The notes under the pieces are model-generated. The model ran no database searches and was not told the origin of the DNA. It saw only the letters and a list, made by a program, of their open reading frames with translations. Both the position numbers and the translations under genes were made by a program. A stretch of DNA of 64,000 nt from NCBI RefSeq assembly GCF_963676685.1, contig NC_092345.1, positions 96,906,001 through 96,970,000 of the forward strand, written 5' to 3'. Positions within the stretch are counted from its first letter, which is position 1; every line of letters starts with the position of its first letter. Shown one piece after another: positions 1,766 through 31,293 of this stretch. The DNA comes from Mytilus edulis (lineage: Eukaryota).

Positions 1766-2274
1766 TTATGATAATGGTGATGATGTGCGTTTTACCTATG
1801 TTGATACTATACTACGAGAAATCGTCTTGATCTCTTTATAAAATTGACTTATTTAACAATTTGCACATTTTGATCATAGGAAAGAGTTTGTTTTCCAAAA
1901 GACAATAGTATTAAGCCCTAACCCAAGCCTTCGGGAAGCTAGTTTAGTCTATTTAACAGAATGGCCATTTCATTTTGATGAAACGGGCAATAAAAGAATA
2001 TTGGCACATGTTTCAATATCCAAACCATGTTCTATCAGAAATAATGTTAGCTCTAAACAAGTCACAATTCAAAGAAGGATGCCGAACATCTAAATAATTA
2101 CGCGTGATGAGTGGGTAAAAACATGTAGACAAAAGGAAGCACGAAAAACTTACCTCCCAATGTTTCCATTTGTTGGAGCAGTTGGTTAATGGACGATAAC
2201 TGTTGCATTGTTACACACTGGTATTTACATATATGTATATTAGTTTATTAAAAGTGTATTTCTGTTGCTGAATT

Positions 2275-2996
2275 CATGTACGGTAAGACTGTTGCTTCAT
2301 TGCTGTAAGGTAAAACTGCCGCTGCATTGCTGTACGGTTAGACTGTTGCTGCATTGATGTAAGGTAAGACTATCGCTGCATTGTTGTAAGGTAAGACTGT
2401 TGCTGCATTGATGTAAGGTAAGACTGTCGCTGCATTGCTACACGGTTAGACTGTTGCTGCATTGATGTAAGGTAAGACTATCGCTGCATTGCTGTAAGGT
2501 TAGACTATCGCTGCATTGCTGCAAGGTTAGACTGTTGCTGCATTGCTGTAAGGTAAGACTGTCGCTACATTGCTTTAAGGTAAGACTATCGCTGCATTGC
2601 TGTAAGGTTAGACTATCGCTGCATTGCTGTAAGGTAAGACTATTGCTGCATTACTGTAAGGTAAGACTGTTGATGCATTGCTGTAAGGTAAGACTGTCGC
2701 TTCATTGCTTTAAGGTAAGACTATCGCTGCATTAATGTAAGCATAAATGTAAGGTTAGATTGTTGCTGCATTGATGTAAGGTAAGACTGTTGCTGCATTG
2801 CTGTAAGGTAAGACTGTTGCTGTATTGCTGTAAGATAAGACTGTTGCTGAATTGATGTACGGTTAGACTGTTGCTGCATTGCTGTAAGGTAAGACTGTCG
2901 CTGTATTGCTGTAAGGTAAGACTGTTGCTGCATTGATGTGAGGTAAGACTGTTGAAGAAATTGATGTAAGATAAGACTGTTAAAGAAATTGCTGTA
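2275..2996. repeat. 27-bp minisatellite (ctgttgctgcattgctgtaaggtaaga)n
   Basis: About 26 tandem units; explains the 9-aa periodic ORFs. Confidence 0.95.
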
Positions 2997-4159
2997 GCCA
3001 CCGTGGTCAGTAGCTCTCTTGGTAAATATGCTATTACTTTAATCAAAAGATGAACTAATACCAGATTGTTTTGCATGACAGTGCTTTTAATGGAGTGGAA
3101 ATTACCTTATCACACAACAGTCCGCAGAAAAATACTTGATCTGTCAAAGAATTTTCGAACTTTTTGTTAATCTTTTATCACTTTTTCTTTGTATATTATA
3201 TGATGTTTATCCTCTTTAGATATTATGTGCAAATGTGCGGTCATTGTTGATAATCATCAATTGTCCATCGATTTCCTTCCTTTTTTGGCTCTTTTCCTCT
3301 ATCAAAGTTGACAACGTTTTCTGTTTGTGAATGTTTTCCTGCTATATTGCTCTTCTCTTCCTCTCTACATTATGACTGAATGACAATAAAACAGGAAGTA
3401 AAATAATAGTTGAGAATTATGAATCTTTTGCATTAATTTGTCCAAAATACATATTACAAGTTAAGTTTTAACAAGAAATAGAAGTACAGTGCAGTTTGGT
3501 ATTGGAATAGAATGCCTGACGTTGGTTGACCATGTAAGACTAAAAAAAATTACTTCAATTTTGTTTATCATTATCTATTAAAAAAAAAATGTCTTCAGCT
3601 TTGCAGTCCTTAACAATGCAGATGTCGTTTATAAAGGCTAGTGCAGCTTACGTGCAAAACTGCCTCTGGCACTTTTAAGTGCATCAAAAAATTATCAAGC
3701 ATTGCATATTTGTGTGACAGACGCGACAATCTGTATGTACTCCCTTCTATTTTATTACGCCTTGATACTGATATGAAAAACGTGTTTGCATTTCAATGTA
3801 AACTAAAATTTAATTATTAAGGCGTAGATGATAAATTGACGGATCTTAAGTGAACAGAATAATCATCGGAACAATTAACTAGGGATCAGACTTTCATTCA
3901 ATTTGTGTTTTATTGACATACACTAATCACAGGGTCACAGACTTTCCTTTTTTGCAACATTCACCAAAGCAATGACCAAACTGCTAAACCTAGTTGGTAG
4001 TGAAAAACGTCGATTGTCTATACCACGTTGATTGAAGCCCGGTATTAAACTTATTATTATTTTACATCATTGAAACATTGAGCAACATTGTTATTTGTTA
4101 TCTGTTAGATCTATGTAAATTGCATTCATATTCTGTGGTCTGATGAGCTGACTCTAGAG

Positions 4160-4372: not shown

Positions 4373-5751
4373 CATTTTTCATCACCGTTTAATGGAAGAT
4401 AAGTCATACATTTTTTACCATGATGATTTGAAAGAAATTTTTGAAGATCTACAATCCCTCATCATGATTGATTGTAATAAATAAAGGCTCTGGATAGAAT
4501 TAACGATAGGATAGTAACTAATGGAATGGAATGTTTAATCATCAAAGTTTTGGCAAACAAACGAAATTTCGTTTTTATATGTTGAATGTGTGCCAATCGG
4601 CGATTTTACAGTCACTTAAGCGATGTTAATGCGGAACCGGATAATGGATTATTGCGACTGTTGAATCAGGAATTCAGTTAATTTTTAAAAGATACATTTT
4701 GTCACTTAATTCTTCAAATTTCACAAATTTCTTTAAATATGCAATTTCTGCTGCGATATTCATTTTGTGTGTCGCGATGATATGTCAGGCGACTTTGGGG
4801 AAAAGGACGATATTTATGTCTATTTTTTTATCAATTGAAGAAATTGGAAGTGACTTGTTCCCAACTACACCTTTTTTTTCTGCTATACGAATAAAAAGCA
4901 AATTGATCTACACAGCAAACTAACGCAACTCGCTTCTAACTTATTGATGAACCAGTTAAAAAATAAATTGCGATCGATGTGTGATATTTGCTGAAAAGTT
5001 GATAAAAAGGTACATATTTAGGGTCCATTAGACAGATTTATTAGATCGATTTATTATTTTCAAACACTGAGAGAGAGAGATAATATAAAGATTACATACT
5101 TTGCATCTGATGAAGTTTTGAATTTATACTAAATATAGTAAATATTCACATATAAGCTCTTTCACGGTTCTGCAATCTGTCGATACACAAGGTCATGTTT
5201 TCTATGACTGTGTATGACGTCTTTACGCTAAATCTATTGGATATTTGATGTGTACGGATTGATATTCTAGTCTTAGATACGGGATTCTTTTATAAGTTTT
5301 TATTGGTTTTGATCTAGCTGTCAGTACGTGAGTATTCTCTGATCTGTACCACGCACAGTCTGTGTGTTTGCTAGATGTTTCTTTCTGCTTTGTATTGATC
5401 GGATTGGTTTAACCCCTTTCAACTGATTTATAGAGGTCTTATATTGTGCTGTAACACCATTGTCCCAGTTTAGAAGGATGACCCGTATGGTTTTTCATTT
5501 ATTGTTGAAGCACAATGTAAGAAAAACCTCTTTAAATCAGAAAAAAAACCATCATTGCTGTGGAAAGTTGTCTCCTTGGCAATTATACCACATCTCTTTA
5601 TTTTTATGAATAAGAGTATCAACGCGAAACTATCACAGGACCCCTCATACAAAATGATACATTTGCGACTGTATAGAGACGGACAATCATATATGTACCA
5701 TGTAGGTTTAAAACAAATATACTCCAAACATGCATTTCAGCTACAAAAGAT

Positions 5752-5890: not shown

Positions 5891-6030
5891 AAGTCAAGTC
5901 ACAATATTTCTAGACTCCCAAAGAAATGGAGATTGATCCTTGACTGTTTTGTTACTTTTTCATGTAATGCTGTTTTGTTTCTTTGTTATTTAGCACACAT
6001 TTGTTTTCATTCATCCCTCTTTTTGTTGAT

Positions 6031-6310
6031 GGAAAGGGAGACAAGGCAGGAGTAAACACTATAAAGGAAAGGGAGAAAAGACAGGAGTGAACACTATAAA
6101 GGAAAGGGAGAAAAGGCAGGAGTGAACACTATAAAGGAAAGGGAGAAAAGGCAGGAGTGAACACTATAAAGGAAAGGGAGAAAAGGCAGGAGTGAACACT
6201 ATAAAGGAAAGGGAGAAAAGACAGGAGTGAACACTATAAAGGAAAGGGAGAAAAGGCAGGAGTGAACACTATAAAGGAAAGGGAGAAAAGGCAGGAGTGA
6301 ACACTATAAA
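6031..6310. repeat. 35-bp minisatellite (ggaaagggagaaaaggcaggagtgaacactataaa)x8
   Basis: Direct tandem units with a 35-bp period. Confidence 0.95.
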
Positions 6311-7434
6311 ACTATCTGTATTAATTAAATTAGTCTCCATCTCTTTTTAGTAAGCAGTGGATTTTCAAACATATCTCTTAAAGTGAGGAATTTCTAATTC
6401 ATAGTTTTTTCTTTGGTTGAATTGTGTCCTTGTTATAGAAATAGAAACTTTAATTTCAATAATTTCCAATTAATTGAAATCAATCGAATTTTCGGATAAT
6501 TGGATGAAAACCTAAGAATGACCCCCAACGTAATGGATTAATCGAGTCGTTTGTGATTAAGAACGGGTTGATATCGATGTTTTGTTTAGATTCTTCATTT
6601 TCTTAAAACTAATAAAACTGTGATCAGACGTTATATCAAAGAAATAAAGAAGACGTTTAAAAGACAAAATACTTCGTGTCGCCATATGACCATCCTGATT
6701 AACAATAGATTAAAAAGCTTTTTCGGTGCCGGTTATCTTGCATAATGTAAATATCAAACTAAAAACGAGTCTAGCTGTACAACTTTCATCATTAATATTT
6801 TGTAATTGGACGATACTTTTAGATGTGAATTATTGTTATGCCAGTGTGTTAATTAATATTGCTTTGCAACCTCCACGGGCCCTAATTTGGCGAAAAAATT
6901 CATATTCTTATTATTTATACATGTTTTATGATGACATACTTTCAAAATGGTTTTATATTTAAATGTGAACGGATTTTTCAGGCTTTGAAAACTTCATGTA
7001 CTGTCTAAGACTGTTTCGAGATGCCAACGTGTATGTGTTTCTTAATTAGATGAGCCTCGCACCTATAGTATATCTTAAATTTTGAAAGATTGTAGCAGCA
7101 ATCAATCTGTCATCTTGAAACCGCTTCAGGTTTTTTTTCTTATTAATATGGTCAATTTGAAGACGAACGCCTCTTTGTTAAATGAGGTATTGATCAGTGT
7201 GAAATCAAATGATAAATAATTACCGTACAAACACTGACAAAGACGTCGCGCAAAATACTGGTGATAATAACGTAACGTCGGAAATATAGCAAAAAGCCGT
7301 CTTATTTTCTTGTTTTTTACGTAACGTTTTTCTAATGTGATTTCTAATGTGTAAGCATTGATTCATTCAGGTTTTTTTTCATGGGAATATTTTTTTTCAG
7401 TAAAGATATTCATGTATATTTTATTTAACGAAAA

Positions 7435-7469
<35 letters not shown>

Positions 7470-7513
7470 CAAATTTACAGATCTAACATTGTTGGGTTGA
7501 TGTTTAGACGAGT

Positions 7514-7560
<47 letters not shown>
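7435..7560. repeat. Two (TA)n microsatellite tracts separated by a ~46-bp island
   Basis: Seen directly; abuts the 3' end of the Penelope-like element. Confidence 0.9.
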
Positions 7561-7564
<4 letters not shown>

Positions 7565-7646
7565 ATCACTATAATAAATGTTCTTGTGTATAGAAATATA
7601 TATAGATTACTAGAAAATCCAACATTTCCGGTATGAATAGTTTTAA

Positions 7647-7688
7647 TTCACTAGTACTTTCATGTTTAAATAACAATCTTCAGGTGAA
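7647..7688 (-). ncRNA. Minimal type I hammerhead ribozyme of the Penelope 3' region
   Basis: Minus strand reads ttcac-CTGAAGA-ttgtt.attt.aaacat-GAAA-gtac-TA-gtgaa: stem I ttcac/gtgaa, stem II tgtt/aaca, palindromic stem III AGTACT, cleavage triplet CUA. Confidence 0.8.
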
Positions 7689-7821
7689 ACTATACATGAT
7701 TAACGTAACTATGTAACGGTAGGTATGTAACGTCATAGTTGTCGTTGAGTATATAAAGGGAGATAAATCGTATTACACTTAGTCTATATATAGAAGTATG
7801 GAGCGTCATTATTACACAATA

Positions 7822-8252
7822 CACCTTATCGCTATTCCCGGCTGACCCGTCCGCTTGAACTTTTGACGTCAACAACAATCACTTTTCCATTGTGGCGTCA
7901 GACATTTTGTTTTATGACGTCAAAATTTTACGGGAACCTGTGTGATTTCCAGCAATGGCGGACAAATAGCGATAAGGCAGCAACCATTTGATTTTCTGGG
8001 GGGGGCTATGGTTTTTTTTGGAAAAAAAAGTTTGTTTCCAGTTTTTGGAGAAAAAAAAAATTTGTTTTTGATTCTAAGAAAAAAAAATTGTTTGTTTCAC
8101 CCTCAGCTGCCACTATATGTAATGCTAAAATTGAAAGAAAAAAATTGTTTTCGACTTGTCGCGAAAAAAATAGATGCGGCGAAAAAAAAAATTTGTCCAG
8201 AAAAAAAAACCATAGCCCCCCCCAGAAAATCAAATGGTTGCTGCCTAAGGTG
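7822..8252. mobile_element. TA-flanked MITE (TIR CACCTTATCGCTATT) inserted at the end of the Penelope ORF
   Basis: TA|caccttatcgctatt ... aatagcgataaggtg|TA once the nested MITE at 7976-8245 is removed. Confidence 0.75.
7976..8245. mobile_element. PIF/Harbinger-type MITE nested in the right TIR of the 7822 MITE
   Basis: TIR GGCAGCAACCATTTGATTTTCTGGGGGGG with TAA target duplication (7973-7975, 8246-8248). Confidence 0.85.
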
Positions 8253-8254
8253 TA

Positions 8255-9114
8255 TAGAAAATGCATAGTTTGCATTCAATCGTGATTTAAATTTTGAAAT
8301 AAAATGTTTTTCCTTTACTTCTCGTGTAATGTCACAACCCATATTCATTTTATAAAATGGGAATATTTTAAAAAATCCCCCTCCACATTCGTCTAAATGT
8401 TTGCTTAGTGGGATTTTTCTGTATTGTGGCTGCCTTATATGTTGTCTATGAATGCGCACTCTTTCTGTTACACTGTTCCCTGTTTGGCCGATATAAATTT
8501 CCTGGCAACCATTACATTTAATGCAATAAATTAAGTTCTCGGATTTACAGGTAATGTCTTCGTTGGTAAAAAGTGATAGACCATTAGGTATGTCCATTCC
8601 CTTGCCGACATGGATATACGGACATGCTCCACAACGACTATCTCGACATTTTGACACACTGAATGTTCTTTGTTGGTCGAATCGTGCTCGGGTCAATAGT
8701 CGTTTAAGGTTTTGTGGTTGCCGTTTACTTTGTAGAAGTGTTTCTGTATTAATTAAACGGCGCATCTTTTCATCCTGATCAAGAATATGTAAATTTGCCT
8801 TTGCAACGGGAATAATTTTAAAGTTCCGGGGATTATGTGTAATAACGAACGGTATTTTATCGTTGTTATTACTCTGCTCCTCGCAGGTGGAGCGTAGTTG
8901 GTTGGTTGGGATCTGTTTTGCCATTTGAATTCCCCTTTCTATTAAAGTCTCTGGATAGTTTTGCTTGATCAAAAATGATTGTAGTTCCTCTAGACGGTCT
9001 TCTCTCAAATGTTCATCCTCGACTACTGTACATATTTTTCTTGCTAAACAATAGGGGATATTCCTTTTGGTATGAGATGGGTGGCACGAATTAAAATCTA
9101 AATACTGATGAGTA
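8255..9114 (-). pseudogene. Penelope RT thumb, Cys linker and GIY-YIG endonuclease (part of ORF 8103-9173)
   Basis: THQYLDFNSCHPSHTKRNIPY thumb, CRDSRCGAC linker, NLIYCIKCNGCQEIYIGQT..R..H..REVKE; separated from RT by a 4-bp insertion and interrupted at the 3' end by a MITE. Confidence 0.88.
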
Positions 9115-10479
9115 CGTATCAGTACCTTTGTAAAAAATATCGGTTTTAATTTCAGTGCCATCTTTAATAACAAGAATGTCTAGAAACGGTAATTGGTTAA
9201 AATTTCCATCCTTCGTAAATTTTATGGAGGTATGAAGGTTATTTAGTATGTCCGAAAATAGTTGGAGTTCTTCGTCGGATTTGTTCCAGATAATGAAGCA
9301 ATCATCAAGGTATCTTTTCCATGATAATTCGAATTCTCTTGCAAATTCAACTCCAAAATTATTTTCAACTTCTTGATACAGTCTTTGTTCAAGGAAGCCC
9401 ATGACTAATGTTGCATAGGTTGGTGCAAATTTTGTTCCCATTGCTGTCCCCCGATGTTGCAAATAGTTCTTGCCATTGAAATAGAAAGAATTGTTTTCAA
9501 GAATTAGTTTAGTAGAATCGAGTATAAAGTCAACAGTGAATCGATTTGGTATTGCATCTCGATGTTTTGCAACCCAATATTGTATTGCCTCTATTCCTAA
9601 ATCGTGTGGAATGTTCGTATATAGGCTTGTGACATCGAAGCTTACTAAACGAGCGTGAACCGGTGCTATTTTTGGCAGGTGTGAGAGAAAATCTATATCG
9701 TCTCTTATATAGCTCGGTACATATTTACACAATGGTTTCAAAATTATGTCTAAAAAGTTGCTTAGTCTGTGAGTGGGACTTGCTGGACCTGCAATGATGG
9801 GTCTAAGTTTAAGATCCGTCGGTTTTTGCACTTTTATGTATTCGTTTTGCTGAGAATTAATAGCCGATTGGATCTCCTTTGATTTATGGATTTTTGGAAG
9901 GCCATAAAAGTTACTCGTTTTCCTTTCGAAATTTTTCAAGTAATCATACTCTTTTTCCGTAGTGGCCGTTGTGTATTTGTTCAGTACGGTATTCATTCTT
10001 CTCTTGACTAGATGATCTATATTATCAGGAATTTCTGAGTAAAATGTCGAATCATTGAGTTGTTCTTCAACTTTAATTCTATAGTAGTCTGAATCCATTA
10101 TTACTATTGCCCCACCTTTATCGGCCTGCTTAATTACTATGCTTTTATCGTTTCTTAGATTTTGGAGTGCTGACTTTTCGCCTTTAGTTAAGTTGTGGTT
10201 GACTTTAATTGGTGTAAGTGGGTAGTTGGACAAATTTTCGATGTAGTCATCTAAACACTTGTTTCTTCCGGTATTTGGAATAAAGGTAGATTTGTTTCTT
10301 ACTAACGAGTCGTCCTCCTCACTTTCTTTATCCGCGAAATATTCAGTGAGTCTCAATCTTCGACAAAATTTCAACATGTCTGCTTTAAGTTCATCATGAT
10401 CCACAGAGGGAGTTGGTGTAAATTTTAAACCCCTTTTAAGCAATTTCAGTTCATTGTCATTAAATACTCTGTTGGACAA
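9091..10479 (-). CDS. Penelope-like reverse transcriptase (frame open further upstream without ATG; frameshifted near 9115)
   Basis: Complete set of RT core motifs including catalytic YLDD. Confidence 0.92.
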   Translation of the reverse strand: MSNRVFNDNELKLLKRGLKFTPTPSVDHDELKADMLKFCRRLRLTEYFADKESEEDDSLVRNKSTFIPNTGRNKCLDDYIENLSNYPLTPIKVNHNLTKGEKSALQNLRNDKSIVIKQADKGGAIVIMDSDYYRIKVEEQLNDSTFYSEIPDNIDHLVKRRMNTVLNKYTTATTEKEYDYLKNFERKTSNFYGLPKIHKSKEIQSAINSQQNEYIKVQKPTDLKLRPIIAGPASPTHRLSNFLDIILKPLCKYVPSYIRDDIDFLSHLPKIAPVHARLVSFDVTSLYTNIPHDLGIEAIQYWVAKHRDAIPNRFTVDFILDSTKLILENNSFYFNGKNYLQHRGTAMGTKFAPTYATLVMGFLEQRLYQEVENNFGVEFAREFELSWKRYLDDCFIIWNKSDEELQLFSDILNNLHTSIKFTKDGNFNQLPFLDILVIKDGTEIKTDIFYKGTDTYSSVFRF

Positions 10480-10502
10480 ATTTATAATTTTTGGATCGAC
10501 TT

Positions 10503-11195
10503 TTAGGCATGTTTTAGACTGGTTTCTTCTGGATTTTTCTCCCTCTCGGGAGTTATTTGGCCCGACACTAAAAAATGAATACGTTTTTCTTGATTCTGGC
10601 GCTGATTAGTTTTTACATAATTTACATAATTTTGCCGGTTGTTTTGAACGTTATTCTTATTGATACGGGATCGGTTCACTGATTTATTTCTTGGACGGCG
10701 ATTTTGTTGGTAGTTTCCTCTACCAGCTGACTGCGTATTCGCTGTCCGACGTTTTTGAGACGAAGCATTGCGAACTACTTCCGCATATGATTTTCGTTCT
10801 CCTTTTGTCGACACTGACCGACTTTGCCTTCTTGAAATGTTTTTCGAAGTATTTTTTCTGGCTGTCGAACTTGAGCGTCTGCGATTGGTTATCTTCTTTT
10901 GTCCACTTGGTTGTCTTCTGGTATTTTGACCAGTTTGAAGTTTTGATCGTTGTTGCCGTTTCTTGTATTTATTCGGTTTACGATTATCTTCAAAAGACTG
11001 CTCTTTACCGTAATTTTTTATGTAATTTTCTAAGAATTCTTGCTTCTTATGCCATAAATTACGGGATTTTTCCTCTTCTTTGAAAATATCACGTGTCCAA
11101 ATTTCCTTAAGCTTTTCAGCTATTCTTTCCGTTGATATCTTTTGTATTCCTGCCACCATTTCAGCATCAATTGCGTTGTATTTCTCAGTGTAGCT
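10503..11195 (-). CDS. Penelope ORF1 / N-terminal helical and basic (R/K/S/N-rich) protein, 5'-truncated
   Basis: Part of ORF 10503-11324; helical segment followed by a basic low-complexity tract; overlaps the RT frame in -1. Confidence 0.65.
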   Translation of the reverse strand, partial: SYTEKYNAIDAEMVAGIQKISTERIAEKLKEIWTRDIFKEEEKSRNLWHKKQEFLENYIKNYGKEQSFEDNRKPNKYKKRQQRSKLQTGQNTRRQPSGQKKITNRRRSSSTARKNTSKNISRRQSRSVSTKGERKSYAEVVRNASSQKRRTANTQSAGRGNYQQNRRPRNKSVNRSRINKNNVQNNRQNYVNYVKTNQRQNQEKRIHFLVSGQITPEREKNPEETSLKHA

Positions 11196-13281
11196 GGATC
11201 GGCTTAAATATTTTGGAATCGTGTCTATCAATTGAGTCCACATATCGAAATACCCTTCTTTTAAATAATGCACTTCTTGGCTTTTTAAGGCTACTTTCGC
11301 AGAACGTAAATAAATCCTTCGCATTCTGAATCACTGTATTGCCACGTAGAACAGATATGTCCGCCTGTCTTTTTATAAATCCCCCCGCGGCATCTTGAGG
11401 CCCTTTTGCATGGCTTGTTTCAAAGAACTTTCTATGGAATGTTTTATATCCGAAATCAGGGATGGCAGTAGATAAACTTCCTAAACAGTGCCGCGATTTA
11501 TATTGGCTAGAACAACCGTCTGTGAATTCATGCATATGATCAACTGTGTATGATATTGAATCTAAATATTCCTTAACTTTCTTTTGGACATATTTTGTAA
11601 AATCATTATCATGTTGCAGGTCCGGGGAAATTACGAAAAAATGTTCCGTAATTATTTCCGGAAATTCTTCTGTACTGTCTACACCATCGTATTCTAAAAT
11701 GGCGTGTCGGTGCATGACGGTTACATGAATGCTGCATTCAGTTCTTTGGAAGTAATTGGATTGGATTTCTTCTTTCTCGACACAGCGATAATTTTCCGAA
11801 TAATCGTGGATGCATATGCAATGATTGACTGGCAAGTTCTGAACAAGACTTTTAAGTTGATTGCTTTGCCAGTTTGATCGGTGCTGGTGAGCGGGGAAAG
11901 TTTCGAGAAGCTTTTTTAAATTGAGAAACATTTCGTTTACGCTAGTTTTCTTTTTTATCAGGATCAGTCGGCGCCTTACATTTTTACCCTTCGATTTTTC
12001 AGTTATATATTCATATTTTTGCCATTCAACAGTTGAAGACGACTGTGATTCGTTGGGTGAAAGTTTGAAATTACCAACTCCGCAAAGGCTACATTTTCGG
12101 TCAAGACAATTTTTTCTATAAAATCCATTTACTTTTGGACATAGCGTAATATGTATAAGGTCTGACATTTTCTCAAATACGGGATAGTCACTTTCTTGCG
12201 AATCGGTTTCCCTGTCACACGATTTTTTGAACTTCATACATGCTTTGAAAACAAGGTTTGCTTCCACGTGATATCTACAACAGCATGTATTTCTATCTTT
12301 TTCAGATGCAGGTCTTACGAAAAACGGTCGACGTTTCTCAAATGCTCTTTGTCCAATTTTAATTTCCGGATATTTGGCGACAAAATCTAAATACGCATCA
12401 GTTTGTGTTTTTTCCAGCACGTGTGTCATATGCGAAGTATATAAGTTTGGTCCCAATCGTTCTCTTTTGATATCTGATTTGTTGCCGGTCGGGTGTGATA
12501 TGCCATCAGAGAGCCAAAAGTTATAAACTGTTTTCTTTGTTTCTTCTGAAATGGAATCTTTTCTTGTTTTCTGTTGCGTAAGAGCCCATGCAGACGATTC
12601 ACTTTTAAGAATTCTAGACCTAATACGCTGGCCTCCAGCAACCCTTCTTGCTGGCAAACCTAAATTTTTACACAGTTTAATTTTACCTCTCGAGTTTGCT
12701 AAATTTTCCCCGCTGATTGATGCAGTAACAGAATTCATTACCGAACGTGCATTCTTAGATCGCTTTAATTTTGTAGATTTTATTATTTCTTGAATATCTG
12801 CAACGACGGCCATTTCAACTTGCGAAACTGAATGTTTCAGATTAGCTATTGTTGGCGATCGAGGGGATCTGCGGGCCAAATAAGTCGATATAACTGCGCA
12901 TCGTTTAGATGGAGATTTTGGTAAACCTTCTTTAAATTTTCTTAGGGCTCTGGCCTTTTCCATTCTGTTTTTGAAAACATTTGAACCTTCTGGTACAACA
13001 AGTGACATTGATGAAAGTTCTACATTTTTTTTACCTCTGTGTTTACGGACATTCATTTTATTTTTCAGTTTTCTTTCATTTATTTTCTTAGATTTCTCCC
13101 TTTGTTCTCTCTTTTTTCTTGCATTAATCGTTTGACTATATGTTTTTGTCTCGCTCTCTTTATTCTTGTACAACTTTCCATAAGATTTTCTACTCGTTTC
13201 ATTTTTCTGAAGCCTTTTTCGTTCTCTGTTCCTAATAAGTATTTCCTTAGCCGAAAGTTTACTTTTTTTTCTGTTATTCAT
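11185..13281 (-). CDS. Sola2-like DDD transposase, probably C-terminally truncated
   Basis: TCCCRYH and CxxxxCxxCG zinc motifs; catalytic motifs HDYSENY, EIQSNY, FTDGCSSQYK, SHAKGPQDAAGG; basic N-terminus; first ATG at 13281. Confidence 0.8.
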   Translation of the reverse strand: MNNRKKSKLSAKEILIRNRERKRLQKNETSRKSYGKLYKNKESETKTYSQTINARKKREQREKSKKINERKLKNKMNVRKHRGKKNVELSSMSLVVPEGSNVFKNRMEKARALRKFKEGLPKSPSKRCAVISTYLARRSPRSPTIANLKHSVSQVEMAVVADIQEIIKSTKLKRSKNARSVMNSVTASISGENLANSRGKIKLCKNLGLPARRVAGGQRIRSRILKSESSAWALTQQKTRKDSISEETKKTVYNFWLSDGISHPTGNKSDIKRERLGPNLYTSHMTHVLEKTQTDAYLDFVAKYPEIKIGQRAFEKRRPFFVRPASEKDRNTCCCRYHVEANLVFKACMKFKKSCDRETDSQESDYPVFEKMSDLIHITLCPKVNGFYRKNCLDRKCSLCGVGNFKLSPNESQSSSTVEWQKYEYITEKSKGKNVRRRLILIKKKTSVNEMFLNLKKLLETFPAHQHRSNWQSNQLKSLVQNLPVNHCICIHDYSENYRCVEKEEIQSNYFQRTECSIHVTVMHRHAILEYDGVDSTEEFPEIITEHFFVISPDLQHDNDFTKYVQKKVKEYLDSISYTVDHMHEFTDGCSSQYKSRHCLGSLSTAIPDFGYKTFHRKFFETSHAKGPQDAAGGFIKRQADISVLRGNTVIQNAKDLFTFCESSLKKPRSALFKRRVFRYVDSIDRHDSKIFKPIQLH

Positions 13282-13607
13282 ATTTCTGAAAGCATATTTA
13301 TATTTGAATGTACACAAAATTTTGGTCTGATTTTTTTAAGTCCGATTATTTTAATTGATTGTTGGTTTATAAATACATTCAATAATTAAATATGAGTCTT
13401 TTTTGTCTCGTGTTTTATTTTTTTGGAACTAATCATTCTCCTGAAACACCAGAGATCATTTCGGTTGTTTGAAGGGATTGGTGCCTCTTGTTTTGTCTAC
13501 GAAAATTATCTAATATGGTAACTCTTCTTTTAGATTGTTTCAGAACTTCCTAAAGTCAAATAATTTTTTACGAATTTTAATATAGAATAATATTTTTATT
13601 TCATTAA

Positions 13608-14162
13608 GGGAGCAACCATTTGATTTTAATGGGGGGGGGGGGGGGTGCTAGGATGGCAATTTTTTTAGTTGTTATCTCGGTCCTGCCTTATATTTTCACT
13701 ATATTTGGTCCTGCCTTTTTTTACAAGTTTATCCTGGGTTTGTTTGCCAATTGCTCATCCTGCCCTTTTAACCCCACCGCAGTTCGCGCCTGTCCTAAGT
13801 CAGGTACCTATAGCTTTTGTTAGTCTTTTATATTTTTTTACTTTTAGTTCATCTCTGTGTTTCGAAGTGAAGAGTGGCGTCCATTTTCTTGATCTAGTAT
13901 ACATTAGGATTTCGGGGCCTACTCAAGACCTCCTCTGGGTGCGGGATTTCTCGCATGTTGAAGACCCATTGGTGGCCTTGAGCTGTTTTCTACGTTTTGG
14001 TCGGGTTGTTATCTCTTTGACATATTCCCCGTTTCCATTCTTATTCATTATTTTTTTACTCGAAACTCCTGTCTGCCTATTTTTTACACTCAAAACCCCT
14101 GTCCTCCCTCTTTTTCAAATTTCATTCTAGCCCCCCCCCTTAAAAATCAAATGGAAGCTCCC
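13608..14162. mobile_element. Harbinger-type MITE (family of 1462) with ~280-bp internal insertion of another repeat
   Basis: TAA|GGGAGCAACCATTTG ... CAAATGGAAGCTCCC|TAA; extra sequence at ~13768-14045. Confidence 0.8.
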
Positions 14163-15399
14163 TAAGGCAAAAACATGCCCATATCGTTTCATGTTTGAAG
14201 ATCGATTCTTTACAAGTTCTTCTTATAATTTCTTTTGCGTATTGACTCTGTGTGAAATATGACGTTTCATTATTTTTCGACGTTTTTTGTCTCATTGGAC
14301 ATTTTTTCTGATTTTTCTTTTCTTTATTTGCGAAAAGGATAAAATATAAAAACAGCCAGTATTTATATTATCATGTTCAGTATTTGTTGTAATTTTTGAA
14401 ATCTGTATCAGTATTTTTCTTCTGATTTAATCGCGATACATCGTAGATCCCGAAATCGTCAAAATGGAATATTTGTTTGGATTTCAGATAATACGGGACA
14501 TTTTTTCTGATTTTAAATTTTTTCAATAGTTTTTTTTTAAAACAAGTAAACTCAAAAAGTTTGGTACCAATTTAAACAGAAATGTTTGTAATTTATAAAT
14601 TATAAATATAAACGATATCCTTTTAAAATTACCTTCAGTATATGAATTTGATCTTCAAAGTTTGCAGTTGGAGTCTAGATTATTTGTCACCATTACAAGA
14701 TCAAAAAGTTGCTATGACGTCATTTTTCTACATGTATGACGTCATATATGTAAGTAAAATTATGTAATTCAAAACTTTACATATGGTTCTTAATTCCTTC
14801 CAAATGAGAACTACCTTTGGCTACTCAATCCATATTTCATTCTCAAAAATGTTTGGAGATCTCAATGTTCAATGTTACGCATTACACGGCAAAATTGCCT
14901 ATTTCATAAAATTTCGCGCTTCAAATCGAAACCTATTCGTGAAAAAAATATCATGAAAAACAGATATTATGTTGCCATTAGATTGGGTAACGAAAATTAT
15001 TTAGCGATTCTGCAAATTGTTGCGTCCTAAACGGACAGTTAGCCTTTTCGCCGATTTTTCTCGAATCACCTTCAAATTGTCACCAGTATCTTGCGCGACG
15101 TCAATTTAGTAAAACTTTTCGTTAGATGTCACGTTCGTTCTCTGCATGGATGTTCACAACAAATAGTAAACATTTCATTTTTTTAATTACTTCTTTAATA
15201 TAACAACCGACTTGACCAGCAGGCTAGAGATTTTTTTGTGTGAAAATGGTTTAGATTAGAAAGGCGAAAGGTACCAAAGGGACATTCAAACTTATAAGTC
15301 GATAACAAACTGATAACGCCTTGGCTGAAGAAAAAACCCAAAACAACCAACAAACAAACAAAATACAGACAATAACAATCAAAATCAAGGAGTAAACAA

Positions 15400-15830
15400 A
15401 GACTCACAAAACCAAAGGACATTTACATCAACAGTTATAAATAATAATTAAGAAACAACACGAACTCCACTCAAAAACGGGAGTGAATATCAGGTACTCC
15501 GGAAGGGTAAGCATTTCCTGCACCGTATACGGCACCCGTCGTGTTATTTCTTTGTTCAGTTCGGTAATGATGGAAGGTTATTATGACTGAGGAAGAATAT
15601 CAGATATGATTTCTGACACACTTTTGTCATAATGGCCAATCAGCTCATGATGGCGACCGTAAAATTTCTTAAGTGATGACCTTAATTTGATTGATTCGTA
15701 GCCCTGTCTTAGCAACTTTTGAGAAAGCAGTATTCCTCGTTCAAAAAAATCAACGTACTTTGAGCTAGCTCTAGAGTAACGTATCAATTGAGACACATAT
15801 ACTCCATATGCTGGTGCCGCTGGGATGTAT
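15400..15830 (-). pseudogene. 3' fragment of a second Penelope-like family (RT thumb plus 3' tail)
   Basis: IPAAPAYGVYVSQLIRYSRA...LLRQGY...LKKFYGRH resembles a PLE thumb; stop at 15581 with no GIY-YIG downstream. Confidence 0.65.
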
Positions 15831-17384
15831 ACAAAACATACTATAGAAAAAATAACGACTACTGAAACCAGGGATGATCTCAGGTGCTCTGGAAGGGTAA
15901 ATCATGCACCTCGTGATAAAGTTTTGCTTTGCGAATAAGTTCGTCGTATATACAAAACTCATTGTTTCTTACTGGCTTTATACACCATTGAACAACAAAA
16001 TCTCTGTACCTGCACGAAGAAAGGGAAAATCAAAATAAATATCTACAAAGCGATTTACATCCAGCAGAGATTAACGCTTTTGAATACACTCGGGCCCCAC
16101 TATGAAACTATCTATATTTTAAAACTGACTTTAGAAGCATTTGTATTGTTGCTCAGTGACTAGTTGTATGTGATTGAATTATCAGTCGCTCTCGGTGATT
16201 TCACAATCGAGGAAAATACGCTACTACAATTAGAACAGCTTTGTGGTAATTTGTGAAATAGTTTCAGCAACGGTCAATTACACATGATGGTGTCTGGTAA
16301 ACTCGAAAAGATTTTCTTCATGAATTTTGGTTCAATATCGTCCTTGAATGAAGCAACCCTCTTTTAAAGAAACCATTTTCGGAAGCACAGGCAATGGGAC
16401 ATCGTTTAACTTTTAACTGAGAGAAATATACCGTGCTAAATAAGCAGGCGCTCTAGAATTTTGCTTCATAGAAATTGAAAGGTAACGATTGAAAGCTGAA
16501 ACTAGTTTCTATATGAAAATCAAGATATATGAAGCAGTAAAAGCTCGTAAAAGGGGTTCTAATGCGGTTATGTCCACAAATGATAAAAAGAAGACGTATT
16601 TGTATATTCCTAATGACAACGTTTTTAAACCGGTATTATTTTGTATTGTACGATTGTGATTTCATAAGAATTAACAAAACTAAAAGGCAAACAAATTGAC
16701 TCCAGTCGAACAGATTATGACGAGCAGGTGGCAATGAACAGCTAATATTAGATGTAACAAAGGCAATTATTAGATTGCCATCGAGGGTCTATTTTATTGA
16801 TACAATATGTCATTCCAATTATAAGTCTTGTATAACAAATAATGTCTACATAAATATCGAATGCAAAAGATCCAATATGACTGAACCATCCACTTCTGAC
16901 ATCCAGCGAAGAAAAATATTGTGTTTTATTTTTTATTTAAAAAAAACATAATTCTGGAATTACAAAACTAACTTATTTCTTTCTCGTATGTTTCCGCTAT
17001 CATTTTATTTTCTGCAACTATTATCTAATTTCAAATTAATTCTGTGACAGCAAAACGATTCTGGCTTCATTTGGTACCGTCTACGGCATACAGATCAATG
17101 TGTTGGCCTTCTATGTCCCGCAGGAATTGTTCATCAAATTACTACATCCTAAATCTATTAGCATTTTTGTAAGAAATACTTCTGTACAATTAATTCATGA
17201 CGCAAAGTTTTCGTGAAATGTTTGACACTGGACTTTTAAAGCAAGTATCAATTAGTATCATCGTTTTATTTTTTTACTTCCAACCTGTATGTACAAAAAT
17301 AAAGAAATGGTCAAATGTATGATACATGGAACTGATATAAACACCAAAAGTAATGCCACCGACCACTTAAAGCTAAAACAGGCA

Positions 17385-18820
17385 TGCGTACGGTCCAGCT
17401 GACCATACATGTTTTTTGGGATCATATGGGTTAAATGTTAACAAACATTTATCAAAATCTTTATTTTTAGTTATACTTATAGATTATTACATGGCATTTT
17501 TTTTATATTGCCCTGGTATCAGCCCTAGACTCCCATATCAAGCCAGAGGGCTTTAGCCCGAGGGCTTGATATGGGTCGTGGGCTGATACCAGGGACTATA
17601 TGAAAAATGACATGTAATAATCTATTTATCACATATTTTTAAGCAAGAGAAAACAAATAGCTTACACCAAATTATGTTTGATATTTCATCAAAAATCAAA
17701 AAGATATTTAACGAAAATAAAATAAAAAATGTATCACTGTGAGTTTAAAAAAGTTCGTATCACAGTAGGTAAACAACGTTTTGTGAAAAGTTTCAGAAAT
17801 GATTAACAATAAATATATTAATTCTAAGAATTGCAAATATTAAACGACTTTAAAATGTTACATTACAAATGTTAAAAATGCTTTAAAAGAAGAATCCTAT
17901 ATCGCTACTCATTCCAGTGTGGCGTCATATATTTTATAAATTCTTTATGACGTCAAAATTTTACGGGAACTTTTGTGATTTTCACTGTTGATTTCTACTT
18001 TTTTCTTCTACAACAGATTCGTAACTTTCTAAATTTCTTTTCATTGTGTTCAACTTGTTTACAAATAGTCTTTGATTGACAGTTTACCGGAAGTTAAACT
18101 CGGGGGCTTGATATGGATTTCGAAGGCAGATATCGATATCGGCCCCGAGGGCTGATAACCAACCTTGACTTCCGGCTATTATTGGCCATGCAAAAACGTA
18201 CATATCAGTACAAAATATGTGATAAAAATTGTTATTATTACAATTAGATGGATATTTAGTGAATAAGCGAACAATTAAAATTAAATATTAAATTTTGTTT
18301 AATTTTATATCCGTGAATCCTATTTTGTTACTCTGGCCCAAGATGACAGTTTGCTTCCACAAGGAACGTCATATATTTTTAACATTTAACATGTTTTGTT
18401 CATGCATGTTCCTTTGCATATGCATTTTTTTTAAGTTCCTAAATATTCTTAAACAATTGTCCTCCCACATTATGTTTACTTCCGATAACTTCAATTTCAA
18501 TGAGCATACTGGGCTGTAATTAATGAATTAAATTACTGACATGCTAAGTACAGGAGATTAACAGATTAAATAAGCCTGATTTTTTACAAATTAATAGTTA
18601 AAATATAAGTTTTTATTTCAATAACTATTCAACTTTTTATGTTAATTTGAGATATAAGTTATGTTGATCTGTTATATACATTTGTATCTAATAAACTTGA
18701 CCAAATTCTTAATATTAGTCAGACCGTACGCGTACGGTCCGACCGTATGCGTATATTGAAAAAGTACGCATACGGTCCAGACCGTTCGTGTACGGTCCAA
18801 ATACTCATACGGTCTGGAAC
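17385..18820. mobile_element. MITE with cgtacggtc/gaccgtacg subterminal repeats, hosting a foldback insertion
   Basis: Repeated tacggtcc motifs at 17389 and 18721-18820. Confidence 0.5.
17479..18225. mobile_element. Foldback-plus-tail non-autonomous element
   Basis: 147-bp near-perfect hairpin 17479-17625, then ttatcacatatttt ... aaaatatgtgataa inverted pair. Confidence 0.65.
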
Positions 18821-18960
18821 ATATATACTCTTTTTCCTTTTTTGCTTATTTGAAATGTTTAATGTGTGTCTTTGTTTCTAAATTTTATTGTATACATTCT
18901 GACAGCATAGATATATGACATGACTGTTATACCACGAGTATACGGCAGTATATTATATTT

Positions 18961-19998
18961 GATATCGGCCATGGTTGTGATACCTCGGGATATATATACT
19001 ATCAACAGTGACACCGGCCATGATTGTAATGCTCCAAGATATACATTTTACCAACAGTGATATCGGCCATGGTTATGATATCTCGGGATATACATTCTAC
19101 CAACAGTGATATCTGTCATGGTTGTGATACCTCGGGATATATATACTATCAACAGTGATACCGGCCATGATTGTAATGCTCCAAGATAAACATTTTACCA
19201 ACAGTGATATCGGCCATGGTTATGATATCTCGGGATATACATTCTACCAACAGTGATATCTGTCATGGTTGTGATACCTCGGGATATATATACTATCAAC
19301 AGTGATACCGGCCATGATTGTAATGCTCCAAGATATACATTTTACCAACAGTGATATCGACCATGGTTATGATATCTCGGGATATACATTTTACCAACAG
19401 TGATATCGGCCATGGTTATGATATCTCGGGATATACATTCTACCAACAGTGATATCTGTCATGGTTGTGATACCTCGGGATATATATACTATCAACAGTG
19501 ATACCGGCCATGATTGTAATGCTCCAAGATATACATTTTACCAACAGTGATATCGGCCATGGTTATGATATCTCGGGATATACATTTTACCAACAGTGAT
19601 ATCGGCCATGGTTATGATATATCGGGATATACATACTACCAACAGTGATATCGGCCATGGTTATGATACCTCGGGATATACATACTATACCAACAGTGAT
19701 ATCGGCCATGGTTGTGATACCTCGGGATATACATACTACCAACAGTGATATCGGCCAGGGTTGTGATACCTCGGGATATACATTCTACCAACAGTGATAT
19801 CGGCCATGGTTGTGATACCTCGGGATATACATACTACCAACAGTGATATCGGCCATGGTTGTGATACCTCGGGATATACATACTACCAACAGTGATATCG
19901 GCCAGGGTTGTGATACCTCGAGATATACATACTATACCAACAGTGATATCGGCCAGGGTTGTGATACCTCGGGATATACATTCTACCAACAGTGATAT
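18961..19998. repeat. 49-bp minisatellite, ~21 units, with higher-order structure
   Basis: Unit gatatcggccatggttgtgatacctcgggatatacatactaccaacagt. Confidence 0.95.
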
Positions 19999-22128
19999 AG
20001 TCTAACAGCAGCGATTTAGGCCATACGTAGGAGTGAGAGTATGGTATTTGCTACCTTTACTTTCAACGTTCATGCGATGGTGAATAACCAAAAGTGGCCT
20101 CGAACTTACGAGTTAAGGGAAATACCAAGTTTTTTCTTGCAATTGTCCAAACAAATATTAATTTATGAGTCATGCTTACAATTTTAAACAATCGCCCGTA
20201 CGGTGTTTATCAAATATGATAACTGATGCCAGTTTGAGTATAAAGAATGCACCAAAGACGATCACTATTTCTTCAATTATAATTTAGGGATTGACTTTTT
20301 ATTTTACCAATAATTTGAATTGTCCTTTCCGATTCATCTCCAATACCAGTGCTTAATAGACAAGATTTATCTCTTTTCTAAGCATGTTTAAAGTTTTATT
20401 TTCTTTTTTCAAATTATCTTGTATGAGATGTCAAAGAAATAAAGATAAGGACATAAAACAATAAAACTGCTGTCAAATAAAACCGATTAATTCTAGCTTT
20501 TGAAAGAACCAGCTTTATCGTCAAAGCTTCGATTGCATTTTTCCGTATTTTAGCCAGCTATTAGTGTGATTTATCAGTAATACGAGGACATTCACGCGTG
20601 TTCCATTGTACACTGACCCGAAGTCTTATCTGAAGTTAAATATCAAATTGCGAAATCATTAGTACAATTTTAAGTGAAATAATTGAGGATAAAGTTGCTC
20701 GAAGAAAGCAGTGTCTGTTTTTACGAACTGAATGCTTCTTTTTGTAAATACAGAGGGGGTGTAAAAGCTTCATTCTAAAAATGTTCGCATTTAGCCCATA
20801 AAAGGTTATTTACCAAAATGTAAGCATATTCACGATTTTTTTTTTTCGATTTGAGATTATCAATATTTTTTAGCTTATGTATTTGCTCTATTGACTATAA
20901 TTGTCAACCATTTTCCAAAGTGTACATAAAGGTACACTTGGAGGAGGGGGTTAACAAATATTTATACCGAACACTTTTATTTTCAAATAAAATTAAAACT
21001 GTCAGATATGTTTCAAATTATTTTCAATGCAACTATATTAAACAAAACTTTAATAGGCTGGATCTTCTTTTTATAAAGAGTGCTTGATTTTTTAAATCTG
21101 AAAATGGTTGATGTACACTTTTTGAGGGAGGGTGGGGGTTCTGAAAAAGTGTATGTTTTGTAGACTTTGGAAAATGGTTGGAAATTATGGATGACCCCTT
21201 ACAGTATCAATTTTAAATTCTATGTTTTAATAGAAATTAGGACAGTGCTATAATCCAAAAGTGGGCGAAGAATAACCACATAACAACAATCAATATTTCT
21301 ATCCAGAGTTAGGTTCGATATATAGTTAGGCAGTAAAAACAGTGCACTGTATCCGTTATAACGTCTACTATCGTACATATTCTTAGATTCAGACTGTTCT
21401 AGATTTTATAAAATTCCCCTGAACAGAGACAAATATTGAACGTGGTAAAAGTGTAGCACAAGCCTAGTTTCTTTTTTATTCCTTTAGGACAAAGAAATTA
21501 GTTGTTTAAAATTAGAAATGAACGAACTGAATGTTGTTTTTAAAAAGAGATGTGTTTCATCATTTCACAGACAGACGTATAAAAAAAACTGTTAAAGCTA
21601 TATTCCAGCAATGACCAATAAATCAATTAATAGCATGGACATGACAAAGGGTATAACACACAAACAGAAAATAGTACGTATGTCCAACTTGAAGTAATGA
21701 GGTCAGACAATTCCTTCATAATGTCCATATATAGTTAGCACTTACGGCAAGATGAAATAATGTAAATTTCCAATAGTTTCTGCGTTTCAAGCAAGCGAAG
21801 GCTGATTTATTCACGAAGAATATACATATTAAAAGCGGATTGTCACGTGTTTGAAGTATTTTGTCATTATCAGCAGACCTTTTACATTACAAGGACCCTA
21901 CTTTGACTGGTGACATTAAAGCCATTTCACAAGTAGCCACTTACGCAATGATTACTATTTTGTTGAGTGTATTTTCTGTAGTATATTATTTTATTTTATT
22001 TTTTATTACACACGTAACATAACTATTGTCTGTGTATTTCATATGTATTGTTATTGTTTATAATAATATTGTTTGTATGCTATATGCCCTCCTAGGGCCC
22101 TGATTGGGTAAATACAAATATTCTATTC

Positions 22129-22281: not shown

Positions 22282-22691
22282 TATTCTGTAGTTCACCATG
22301 AAGATGTGGTCACACCAACTTGAAACTTAGTATATACATGTACACACATGTTAAAGATAAAGTGCGTTCAAAAAAATATATGTTACATAAGGGTTCCGAT
22401 TACGACAGTATCAATTTTAAATTCTATAATTTTTTTCATAGAAATCAGGACAGTGCTATAATACCAAAAGAGTAGAATAACCACTAATCCAGAACTCAAT
22501 ATTTCTGTAGGTTCGATAGTTACTGACAGTTAAAAGCAATGCACCGTATCCTTTGTTAAGTCTACTAACATACATATCTGTAGATTCAGTTTTAGATTTT
22601 ATAGAATTCCCCAGAACAGAAAAAAATATTGAACGTGGTAAAAGTGTAGTATTTTGATAAAAAACCAAACACTTTAGAAACAAACTAGTGC

Positions 22692-23050
22692 AAGCCTAGT
22701 ATCTGATACTACAGTTCTATAGGACATTGTGAGTTTAAGCCTAGTATCTGATACTACAGTTCTATAGGACATTGTGAGTTTAAGCCTAGTATCTGATACT
22801 ACAGTTCTATAGGACATTATGAGTTTAAGCCTAGTATCTGATACTACAGTTCTATAGGACATTGTGAGTTTAAGCCTAGTATCTGATACTACAGTTCTAT
22901 AGGACATTGTGAGTTTAAGCCTAGTACCTGATACTACAGTTCTATAGGACATTGTGAGTTTAAGCCTAGTATCTGATACTACAGTTCTATAGGACATTGT
23001 GAGTTTAAGCCTAGTATCTGATACTACAGTTCTATAGGACATTGTGAGTT
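22692..23050. repeat. 45-bp minisatellite x8
   Basis: Unit aagcctagtatctgatactacagttctataggacattgtgagttt. Confidence 0.95.
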
Positions 23051-23840
23051 GTTGCTGTGAAATAAAAAATTGCCTAACTGAATTTTGTTTTCATTTAGAG
23101 ATCTGTTTTCTTCATTTCACAGACATACGTAGAATAAAAAGTAATTATGTTTGATAATTCCTTCATAATGTCCACTTACGACATGATGAAATAATGTAAA
23201 TTTCCAATAGTTTCTGCGTTTCAAGAAAGTGAAGGCTGATTCAGTCACGAAGAAGATATATACAACATTTCTTAAAAAGCGGATTGGACAAGGGATTAAA
23301 GTATTTTACTTCACTTGACTAATGACTACAGTTTCACAAGTAGTCACTTACTCAATGATTAGGAAAGTTATGGTCGTACTAAGTGTTATGTGCCCTTTAG
23401 TCTGTCACCATATAAATTGCTAGAAACCCAATAGAACTATTATGGTGACTTTAAACTTACTTTGAAGAAATTTTAAGTTAATTTTATTCAATTATGCAAA
23501 AGAGCTTGTTACTAAAAATGGACACAATTCAGAGAAGTCTAAAATATATTTTCTGGTTTCCATTTAACATAAGATCTTTAAAAATCTTCCTAAGCTGGAA
23601 AAGTTTTAACAACCCTCCTGGACTATTTTTCAAATTTTGCATGGTTTTCTGTGAGACAAGCTCTAAAATGTTCATATATAGTTAGCACTTATACAGCATG
23701 AGAAAAAAATGTAAATTCCAATAGTTTGTTTGTTTCAAGCAAGTGAAGGCTGATTCGGTCACGAAGAAGATACATATAAAACATTTCTTAAAAGCGGATG
23801 TCACATGTGATCAGCAGACAAACCTTCAACATTTTACTTC

Positions 23841-24851
23841 ACAAGACCTTTGACTGATGACACTATTCAACCTTTTTACAAGATCTTTGACTGATGATAC
23901 TATACAACTTTTCACAAGACCTTTGACTGATGATACTATACAACCTTTTAACAAGACCTTTGACTGATGATACTATACAACATTTTCACAAGACCTTTGA
24001 CTGATGATACTATACAACCTTTTCACAAGACCTTTGACTGATGATACTATACAACCTTTTCACAAGTTTCACAAGACCTTTGACTGATGATACTATACAA
24101 CTTTTCACAAGACCTTTGACTGATGACACTATTCAACCTTTTCACAAGACCTTTGACTGATGATACTATACAACCTTTTCACAAGATCTTTGACTGATAA
24201 CACTATACAACCTTTTTACAAGACATTTGACTGATGATACTATACAACCTTTTCACAAGGCCTTTGACTGATGACACTATACAACCTTTTCACAAGACCT
24301 TTGACTGATGACACTATTCAACCTTTTCACAAGACCTTTGACTGATGACACTATTCAACCTTTTTACAAGACCTTTGACTGATGACACTATTCAACCCTT
24401 TTTACAAGACCTTTGACTGATGACACTATTCAACCTTTTTACAAGACCTTTGACTGATGACACTATTCAACCCTTTTTACAAGACCTTTGACTGATGACA
24501 CTATTCAACCTTTTTACAAGACCTTTGACTGATGACACTATTCAACCCTTTTTACAAGACCTTTGACTGATGACACTATTCAACCTTTTTACAAGACCTT
24601 TGACTGATGACACTATTCAACCTTTTCACAAGACCTTTGACTGATGACACTATACAACCTTTTCACAAGACCTTTGACTGATAACACTATACAACCTTTT
24701 TACAAGACCTTTGACTGATGATACTATACAACTTTTCACAAGACCTTTGACTGATGACACTATTCAACCTTTTTACAAGACCTTTGGCTGATGATACTTT
24801 TCAACCTTTTCACAAGACCTTTGACTGATGACACTATTCAACCTTTTCACA
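23841..24851. repeat. ~37-bp minisatellite, ~27 units
   Basis: Unit acaagacctttgactgatgacactattcaaccttttc. Confidence 0.95.
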
Positions 24852-30994: not shown

Positions 30995-31293
30995 GGGAGC
31001 TACCATTTGATTTTTATGGGGGAGCTAGGATGAAATTTGAAAAAAATAGGCAGGACAGGAGTTTTGAGTAAAAAAAAAAAGGCAGGATGAGCAACTTGGT
31101 AAAAAAAAAAGGCAGGATGACAATTTGTGTAAAAAAAAGTCAGGATAAACTAGTAAAAAAAAAGGCAGGACCGAATAGAGTAAAAAATAAAAAGGCAGAA
31201 CAGGGATAACAACTAAAAAAAAAAGCAGGACAAAATTTTTCATCCTAGCCCCCCCCCCCCCCCCCCCCCCATAAAAATAAAATGGTAGCTCCA
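30995..31293. mobile_element. Harbinger-type MITE (family of 1462, inverted) nested in a GCGGATCC-type MITE
   Basis: TAA TSD and same TIRs; flanked by gcggattcagc (30961) and ggatccggcgctg (~31342). Confidence 0.85.

Follow-up and report, generated by a model that had tools for sequence, protein, structure and literature searches.

A 7.9-kb unit at 7242..15102 of a 64,000-nt stretch of the Mytilus edulis genome (NC_092345.1, positions 96,906,001 to 96,970,000; hereafter the window) joins a Sola2-like DNA transposon to a Penelope retroelement, with all parts on the minus strand between matching terminal inverted repeats (TIRs). We concluded that this unit is probably the product of a 5′-truncated Neptune-type Penelope insertion into a Sola2-like copy, accompanied by a deletion, and that the locus is a single stack of decaying elements. 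The initial annotation of the window had offered a choice between a Penelope insertion with target deletion and a composite element; the analysis supported the former, and for the latter there was no sign of spread as a unit. That a nested insertion comes with a deletion is already known, and the case is ordinary rather than a new hybrid element.

Four of 24 sequencing runs were compared with the window, namely the DNA runs X1, X3 and X10 and the RNA run X24 (about 6% of the run). X1 is possibly related to the source sample and was not counted as independent, and X3 and X10 come from other studies with other species labels. The comparison used Logan contigs, which lose rare variants and whose depths do not equal copy numbers, and it covered the listed pieces and joints, with 29,980 pieces and 133 joints outside them. 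The 27-bp TIRs described at the ends of the unit (7242-7268 and 15076-15102, 25/27 identical) were found to be a pair unique in the window, where matches elsewhere stayed below 19/27; about 0.002 pairs this good would arise by chance in 64 kb. A joint led from 7240 directly to 15108 in each of the three DNA runs, with two letters ambiguous, at depths of 7.3, 7.8 and 13.5 compared to flank depths of 8.7, 7.8 and 13.5. Because this empty-site joint was present at flank-level depth, the two TIRs bound one insertion, as had been proposed, and this insertion is missing on at least one allele of these samples. An origin of the TIRs in different insertions was thus ruled out. The empty-site joint skips 7867 nt and the TIR-bounded unit measures 7861 nt, so that 6 nt are left over at the 5′ TIR. 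There is no 4-bp target-site duplication (TSD) around the whole unit, since the flanks are CAAA and AATT, as first reported, and the empty site carries no 4-bp duplication. A contig of X1 that is identical to 6823-7242 ends exactly at the TIR, and this end may mark the branch between filled and empty alleles.

The abrupt junction predicted near 11194 was confirmed, with the match to the parent transposon ending at 11193 and the match to Penelope beginning at 11194. In the run contigs both parents ran unbroken past this position, the transposon without branching in contigs of 3132, 3163 and 3158 nt (depths 94, 108 and 438) and Penelope in X1 and X10. No contig bridging the junction was present among the listed pieces of the three DNA runs. 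The depth beside the junction was what the two parent contigs add up to in X1 (95.24 expected, 95.2 observed), and the same was true of the transposase-side depth in X10 (440.9 expected, 440.9 observed). A single-copy junction could escape Logan contigs, whereas a multiplied family would be expected to show up in them. When protein records were compared, 11 of the 12 listed cluster members that span the junction position continued as the parent does, and the junction tail was present only in the window's own protein; these counts rest on 15 listed members of a cluster of 40. The window's junction-tail protein was found on one contig, compared to 30 for the intact P0121. No longer transposase fusion proteins were found in a search that was weak, and no BLAST links connected 135 transposase-side proteins with 120 Penelope proteins. 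In X24, which may not carry the allele, the RNA depth was about 0-2 across the transposase and 0 at 10524-11177. As far as these data reach, the junction is unique to this locus while both parents occur separately elsewhere, the outcome that had been set against a composite element beforehand. A truncation hot spot near residue 696 of the transposase was also considered and ruled out, as 102 of 115 proteins reaching residues 640-660 run past residue 725.

At the junction, which is out of frame, the two elements share 2 nt, and of the following 16 nt, 11 agree with the parent sequence that was deleted. For a fixed place, such agreement has a probability of about 7e-4, the length having been picked afterwards. 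The homology suggests pairing between transposon and Penelope sequences, and it fits second-strand joining with target loss, microhomology joining or a later repair deletion equally well. Upstream second-strand cleavage leading to a target-site deletion is described in the available part of PMC2881922, and a rotifer Penelope copy without a TSD, joined by microhomology inside another retroelement, in that of PMC3846280. In the series of events that we propose, a copy of a multi-copy Sola2-like transposon of Mytilus first entered a site that is empty in other animals. A Neptune-type Penelope then entered the 3′ part of the transposon in the same orientation, probably by target-primed reverse transcription at the TA run. 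At one join, the transposon is short of at least 698 nt and the Penelope of at least 287 nt of its 5′ end; these would have been lost either when the complementary DNA annealed upstream during integration, with loss of the intervening target DNA, or when a later homology-guided repair deletion took both; the data fit the two options alike. Two MITEs (miniature inverted-repeat transposable elements), a 4-nt insertion and point changes followed. The insertion bounded by the TIRs, the nesting, the missing sequence at the join and the later lesions are shown by the data; the order of the events, the priming at a TA run within the 3′ arm and the homology-guided joining are what we infer.

The transposase frame starts with an ATG at 13281 and ends with a stop codon at 11185-11187, giving 698 aa. 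Its identity to proteins recorded for Mytilus edulis, M. galloprovincialis and M. trossulus is 98-99%. The representative of the 40-member cluster has 884 aa. An open frame with three catalytic Asp motifs had been described, and D493, D588 and D630 were indeed invariant columns in an alignment of 58 sequences. The frame and the Asp triad thus stood, but the transposase is not complete: 188 C-terminal residues are gone, including the invariant H702, C719, C722, C725 and C733 and a β-rich C-terminal domain of the predicted structure. As had been noted, the transposase does not resume beyond the Penelope. The model of the transposase showed an RNase H-like order of strands and helices; in the fold search the integrase matches were weak (best E 0.005) and none reached E ≤0.001. 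Pfam gave no family match for the transposase, the cluster atlas placed it in unnamed clusters and DUF7869, and the transposase locus searches gave no match.

The scan with the TIR pattern gave no match in viral contigs, none in genome contigs and one in metagenome contigs. This match, L001, is a parent copy with a different flank (TTGT), and from 15103 inward its identity to the window is 99.2-99.5%. L001 extends 698 nt past 11193, comprising 566 coding and 132 untranslated nucleotides that are absent from the window, and the parent transposon contigs end at the same TIR terminus. All four parent contigs (L001, whose 4575-4706 lies beyond the coding part, and the Logan contigs) stop about 120-150 nt beyond the transposase stop codon, which suggests a repeat at that point in the transposon family. 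The 3′-arm pattern had no match in either contig set scanned, and the 3′ end of the parent was never seen whole. In X1, X3 and X10, respectively, the depth of the 3′ arm bin 7254-7580, about half of which was skipped, was 66, 28 and 129, compared to 82, 66 and 405 for the Sola2 bins and 207, 237 and 159 for the Penelope 3′ bins. We assigned 7242-7434 to the Sola2-like element because the X10 depth is the highest of the three there, as it is in the Sola2 bins. Further copies of the MITE C family that lies in the 5′ arm were present in the window at 1458-1768 and 30988-31301.

Several features link the transposon to Sola2. By eye, the transposase shares the motifs D(F/Y)xENY, (S/T)DGxxxQYK and TSHxKGxxDxxGG, together with the upstream RPxW/F and CxCxxH, with the sequences in Additional file 10 of PMC3627910, and the available part of that paper also gives short TIRs, a putative transposase of 888 aa (884 aa here) and a 4-bp AT-rich TSD, AWWT. 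In contrast, the copy in the window lacks 188 codons and a paired 4-bp TSD. We named the element Sola2-like since the TSD expected of the group is lacking at this site. Sola2 termini start with 5′-GRG. The TIR here starts with GAC. No TIR or Sola2 match was present in supplementary files 1-12 of the 33 of PMC10294476.

The order of Penelope open reading frame 1 (ORF1), reverse transcriptase (RT) and GIY-YIG endonuclease was as annotated, with a match to Pfam RVT_1 at E 1.5e-8 and to GIY-YIG at E 7.3e-5. The C-terminal GIY-YIG bears the CCHH residues, and the frame at 8103-9179 contains a C-X4-C-X2-C linker whose pattern was shared by 105 of the 120 homologues listed. The basic ORF1 matched residues 159-238 of P0139 at 34%. 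Since contigs of the same family continue 5′ of 11194, by 287 nt in X1 and 58 nt in X10, the copy is 5′-truncated. The depth of the Penelope part climbs from 5′ to 3′, from 20 to 207 in X1, from 49 to 237 in X3 and from 69 to 159 in X10, which fits routine 5′ truncation of family copies. A 4-nt insertion at 9112 splits the RT and is absent from other copies in all three DNA runs. The 435-nt MITE pair at 7820-8254 is also absent from other Penelope copies, as shown by a joint from 7818 to 8254 that was listed in two of the three DNA runs, at depths of 278 (X1) and 215 (X3). The predicted hammerhead was recovered by pattern match as a minimal core of type I with its stems I-III (minus strand, 7688-7647), and stop codon, hammerhead and TA run follow one another at the 3′ end of the relative L002 as they do here; the Rfam search returned no hammerhead, only chance microRNA and small nucleolar RNA matches over MITE and TA repeats, and the minimum free energy fold does not form one (z −0.03). 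The (TA)n near the end of the unit was present as runs at 7435-7469 and 7516-7561. TA runs adjoin the 3′ untranslated region (UTR) both here and in L002, and in the window the stretch 7426-7574 was skipped in the read-contig comparison. No pseudo-long terminal repeat (pLTR), tandem copy or pseudoknot was seen at the Penelope part, and Penelope searches of viral contigs gave no match.

The element resembles the Neptune and Nematis Penelope-like elements in the accessible part of PMC8557442 in having an RT with a C-terminal GIY-YIG, a CX2-5CxxC linker and CCHH residues, a hammerhead near the 3′ end, 5′ truncation and a 3′ TA run. It differs from them in that a pLTR and a tandem copy were not seen, and Neptune was not separated from Nematis, the RT tree comprising 21 RTs other than named Neptune or Nematis references. 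In one Penelope clade, with L013, L014 and L016, ORF1 lies upstream of the RT in another frame and ends in an esterase-like GDS...G...N...H pattern, which we take to be of the SGNH type. Penelope RTs or Sola2-type transposases also occurred in records labelled as bacterial genomes (L002-L033, P0012, P0013, P0016 and P0053), and these are most likely eukaryotic host DNA that was binned in.

The initial annotation had described later disabling lesions in this copy. The 4-nt insertion and the MITEs remained as such, but the change of frame between ORF1 and RT did not: a gap-free contig spans 9530-11194 and keeps the frame change, which is thus the family consensus, and its reading as a lesion was ruled out. 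The heptamer U UUU UUA at 10575-10569 on the minus strand lies in register within the overlap of ORF1 and RT. When codons were shuffled in 34-codon stretches, the exact heptamer appeared in 0.16%, and 24% contained some canonical slippery site. Downstream of the heptamer there was no sign of a strong stimulatory structure (z −0.1 to −1.1). In L003, with 43% RT identity and in the same tree clade, U UUU UUG lies in register and a long ORF1 overlaps the RT in the −1 frame. An in-register XXXYYYN was present at six of the eight loci examined and at none of the other two; of the six, that of L008, a copy nearly identical to L009, seems to be a lesion. Each of the close relatives P0142 and P0143 consists of one long ORF. 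The legend of Figure 1 in PMC8557442, a source available in part, states that Penelope ORF1 can be set apart by a frameshift. Judged by its sequence, the heptamer is a candidate site for −1 programmed frameshifting, of a kind known for Penelope.

Six of the seven private substitutions in the transposase are non-synonymous, one of them at a nearly invariant Asn, as expected without selection. Differences from the family numbered 13 in 3415 positions of the transposon part and 6 in 2941 of the Penelope part among the listed rows (p 0.25), and the order of events implied by this divergence is the expected one but is not significant. The unit probably makes neither a working transposase nor a working RT-endonuclease.

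A number of observations weigh against a nested insertion with deletion at a single locus. The filled allele and the junction were present in the window only and in no read set, from contigs that lose rare variants and with the 29,980 pieces and 133 joints outside the comparison, and the cluster was represented by 15 of its 40 members. There is no clean 4-bp TSD, and with 6 extra nt a plain Sola2 insertion does not explain the site. The order of events by divergence (p 0.25) is not significant, and because the 3′ end of the parent was not seen whole, the TA target inside the transposon is presumed. Finally, the bin 10851-11177 in X10 has a depth of 2.3 beyond the sum of the parents.

One alternative is that the nested unit formed elsewhere and moved to this site once as non-autonomous cargo, with transposase supplied in trans or by repair-type copying, as a rare dead copy. 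Both TIRs are intact, intact 884-aa transposases exist, and several events are piled on an allele that is absent from all three other samples; the site has no TSD, and the first four of the 6 extra nt beside the 5′ TIR fit AWWT and might be a remnant of the donor. However, no second copy was seen among the listed proteins and run contigs, a transfer made by the transposase should leave a TSD, and the extra nucleotides could equally stem from the first insertion of the plain transposon. We therefore consider a single cargo move unlikely. More doubtful still is a reading in which one or more cargo moves account for the odd site and other copies of the unit exist in the source population. If the latter were true, the unit would be a young class I/class II composite in which a cut-and-paste vehicle has taken up a retroelement, at a stage such as presumably gave rise to the Sola2-Fanzor families.

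The junction and the filled site were present in no run compared, which is what an assembly error joining two repeats would give. Such an error is very improbable, as both outer ends map to one empty site, the exact overlap of 2 nt was judged too short to mislead an assembler, the Penelope part has private MITEs and a private insertion like a real old copy, and the window's protein was recorded from a 108-Mb contig. A functional class I/class II composite family, in which transcription from the transposase promoter runs as far as the hammerhead and the retroelement spreads by means of the TIRs, would suit the one-strand parts between matching TIRs and has a precedent in the slime-mould families of Sola2 5′ halves with foreign 3′ cargo (PMC3627910, in part), but it is hardly credible given that none of the three DNA runs had a listed bridging contig, that X1 and X10 had no spare transposase-side depth, that neither a longer fusion protein nor a BLAST match between the 135 and 120 proteins was found, that the join is out of frame with both genes shortened and the substitutions neutral-looking, and that RNA depth in X24, with the limits on that run given above, was 0 at 10524-11177. 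With a nested insertion followed by decay, the most that could be expected of the TIR-retaining unit is to serve passively as a substrate for intact members of the family.

The composite idea deserved a test because Sola2-Fanzor families are known from Dictyostelium fasciculatum and Polysphondylium pallidum, in which, according to the available part of PMC3627910, a Sola2 5′ half and unrelated 3′ coding sequence lie between TIRs, as in the window. Those are many-copy families with 4-bp AT-rich TSDs, in contrast to the one copy here, which has no TSD and a broken cargo. Also comparable is Pen2_Av in a non-LTR (non-long terminal repeat) element, which in the sections of PMC3846280 at hand is likewise nested, without a TSD and with microhomology at its 5′ junction, and target DNA is also lost in the non-LTR target-site deletions covered by the accessible sections of PMC2881922. 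Both differ from the present case, where the host is a DNA transposon that keeps both TIRs and the deletion is at least 698 nt. Further literature was used for comparison in part (PMC10294476, PMC6431247, 10.64898/2026.07.22.740005 and 10.1101/2021.09.26.461848), and no Penelope-Sola2 composite was found in the literature listings searched. The locus offers a clear case of mobile elements nesting in a mussel genome rich in repeats; its junction is well resolved and an empty allele is known. It indicates that a retroelement can disable a DNA transposon copy and yet spare both ends, which is raw material for cargo-carrying elements, and more copies of the junction, if found, would raise its importance.

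Features of the Sola2-Penelope unit and its right border, in window coordinates
Feature	Position	Strand	Remarks
3′ TIR of the Sola2-like element	7242..7268	-	25/27 to 15076-15102; empty-site joint starts here
3′ terminal arm of the Sola2-like element	7242..7434	-	Inner limit unmapped; assigned from depth ranking
Two TA microsatellites with a 46-nt spacer	7435..7561	.	Likely Penelope target; in L002, too, a TA run follows the hammerhead at the end
Minimal type I hammerhead motif in the Penelope 3′ UTR	7647..7688	-	Pattern and stems; predicted cut after 7652
MITE A, 435 nt	7820..8254	.	Terminal inverted repeats; at the end of the endonuclease ORF; joint in X1 and X3; ends ±2 nt
MITE B	7976..8245	.	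Nested in an arm of MITE A; TAA duplication
C-terminal part of Penelope RT, C-X4-C-X2-C linker and GIY-YIG with CCHH	8255..9112	-	
Penelope RT frame	9113..10605	-	RVT_1; 572 homologues among longer proteins
U UUU UUA heptamer	10569..10575	-	In register for a candidate −1 shift from ORF1 to the RT frame
5′-truncated Penelope ORF1	10503..11194	-	Family contigs reach further 5′
Junction	11177..11194	-	2 shared nt (11194-11193), then 11/16 imperfect homology to deleted parent
Sola2-type transposase, codons 1-696 of 884	11193..13281	-	DDD at 11805, 11520 and 11394
5′ arm of the Sola2-like element, including the 5′ TIR (15076-15102)	13282..15102	-	99.2% to L001
MITE C	13609..14162	.	In the transposon 5′ arm; TAA duplication; common to other family copies
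6 nt absent from the empty allele	15103..15108	.	First 4 (AATT) fit AWWT, without a partner at the other end

Immediately right of the element, a very high-copy repeat occupies 15282-15900, with a weak match to a Penelope protein at 15584-15805. Minisatellite arrays with units of 27-54 nt were present at 2154-3023, 5996-6345, 18813-20045, 22597-23136, 23801-24888 and 29302-30025, and another with units in the same range starts at 25999 and runs for about 2 kb or more. On the plus strand, 42813-44312 encodes a 499-aa RVT_1 frame of a non-LTR element. On the minus strand, 33386-38363 contains frames of 394 and 496 aa with DEAD_2 and Helicase_C_2 domains in unusually long exons, presumably a helicase gene of the DDX11/XPD type.

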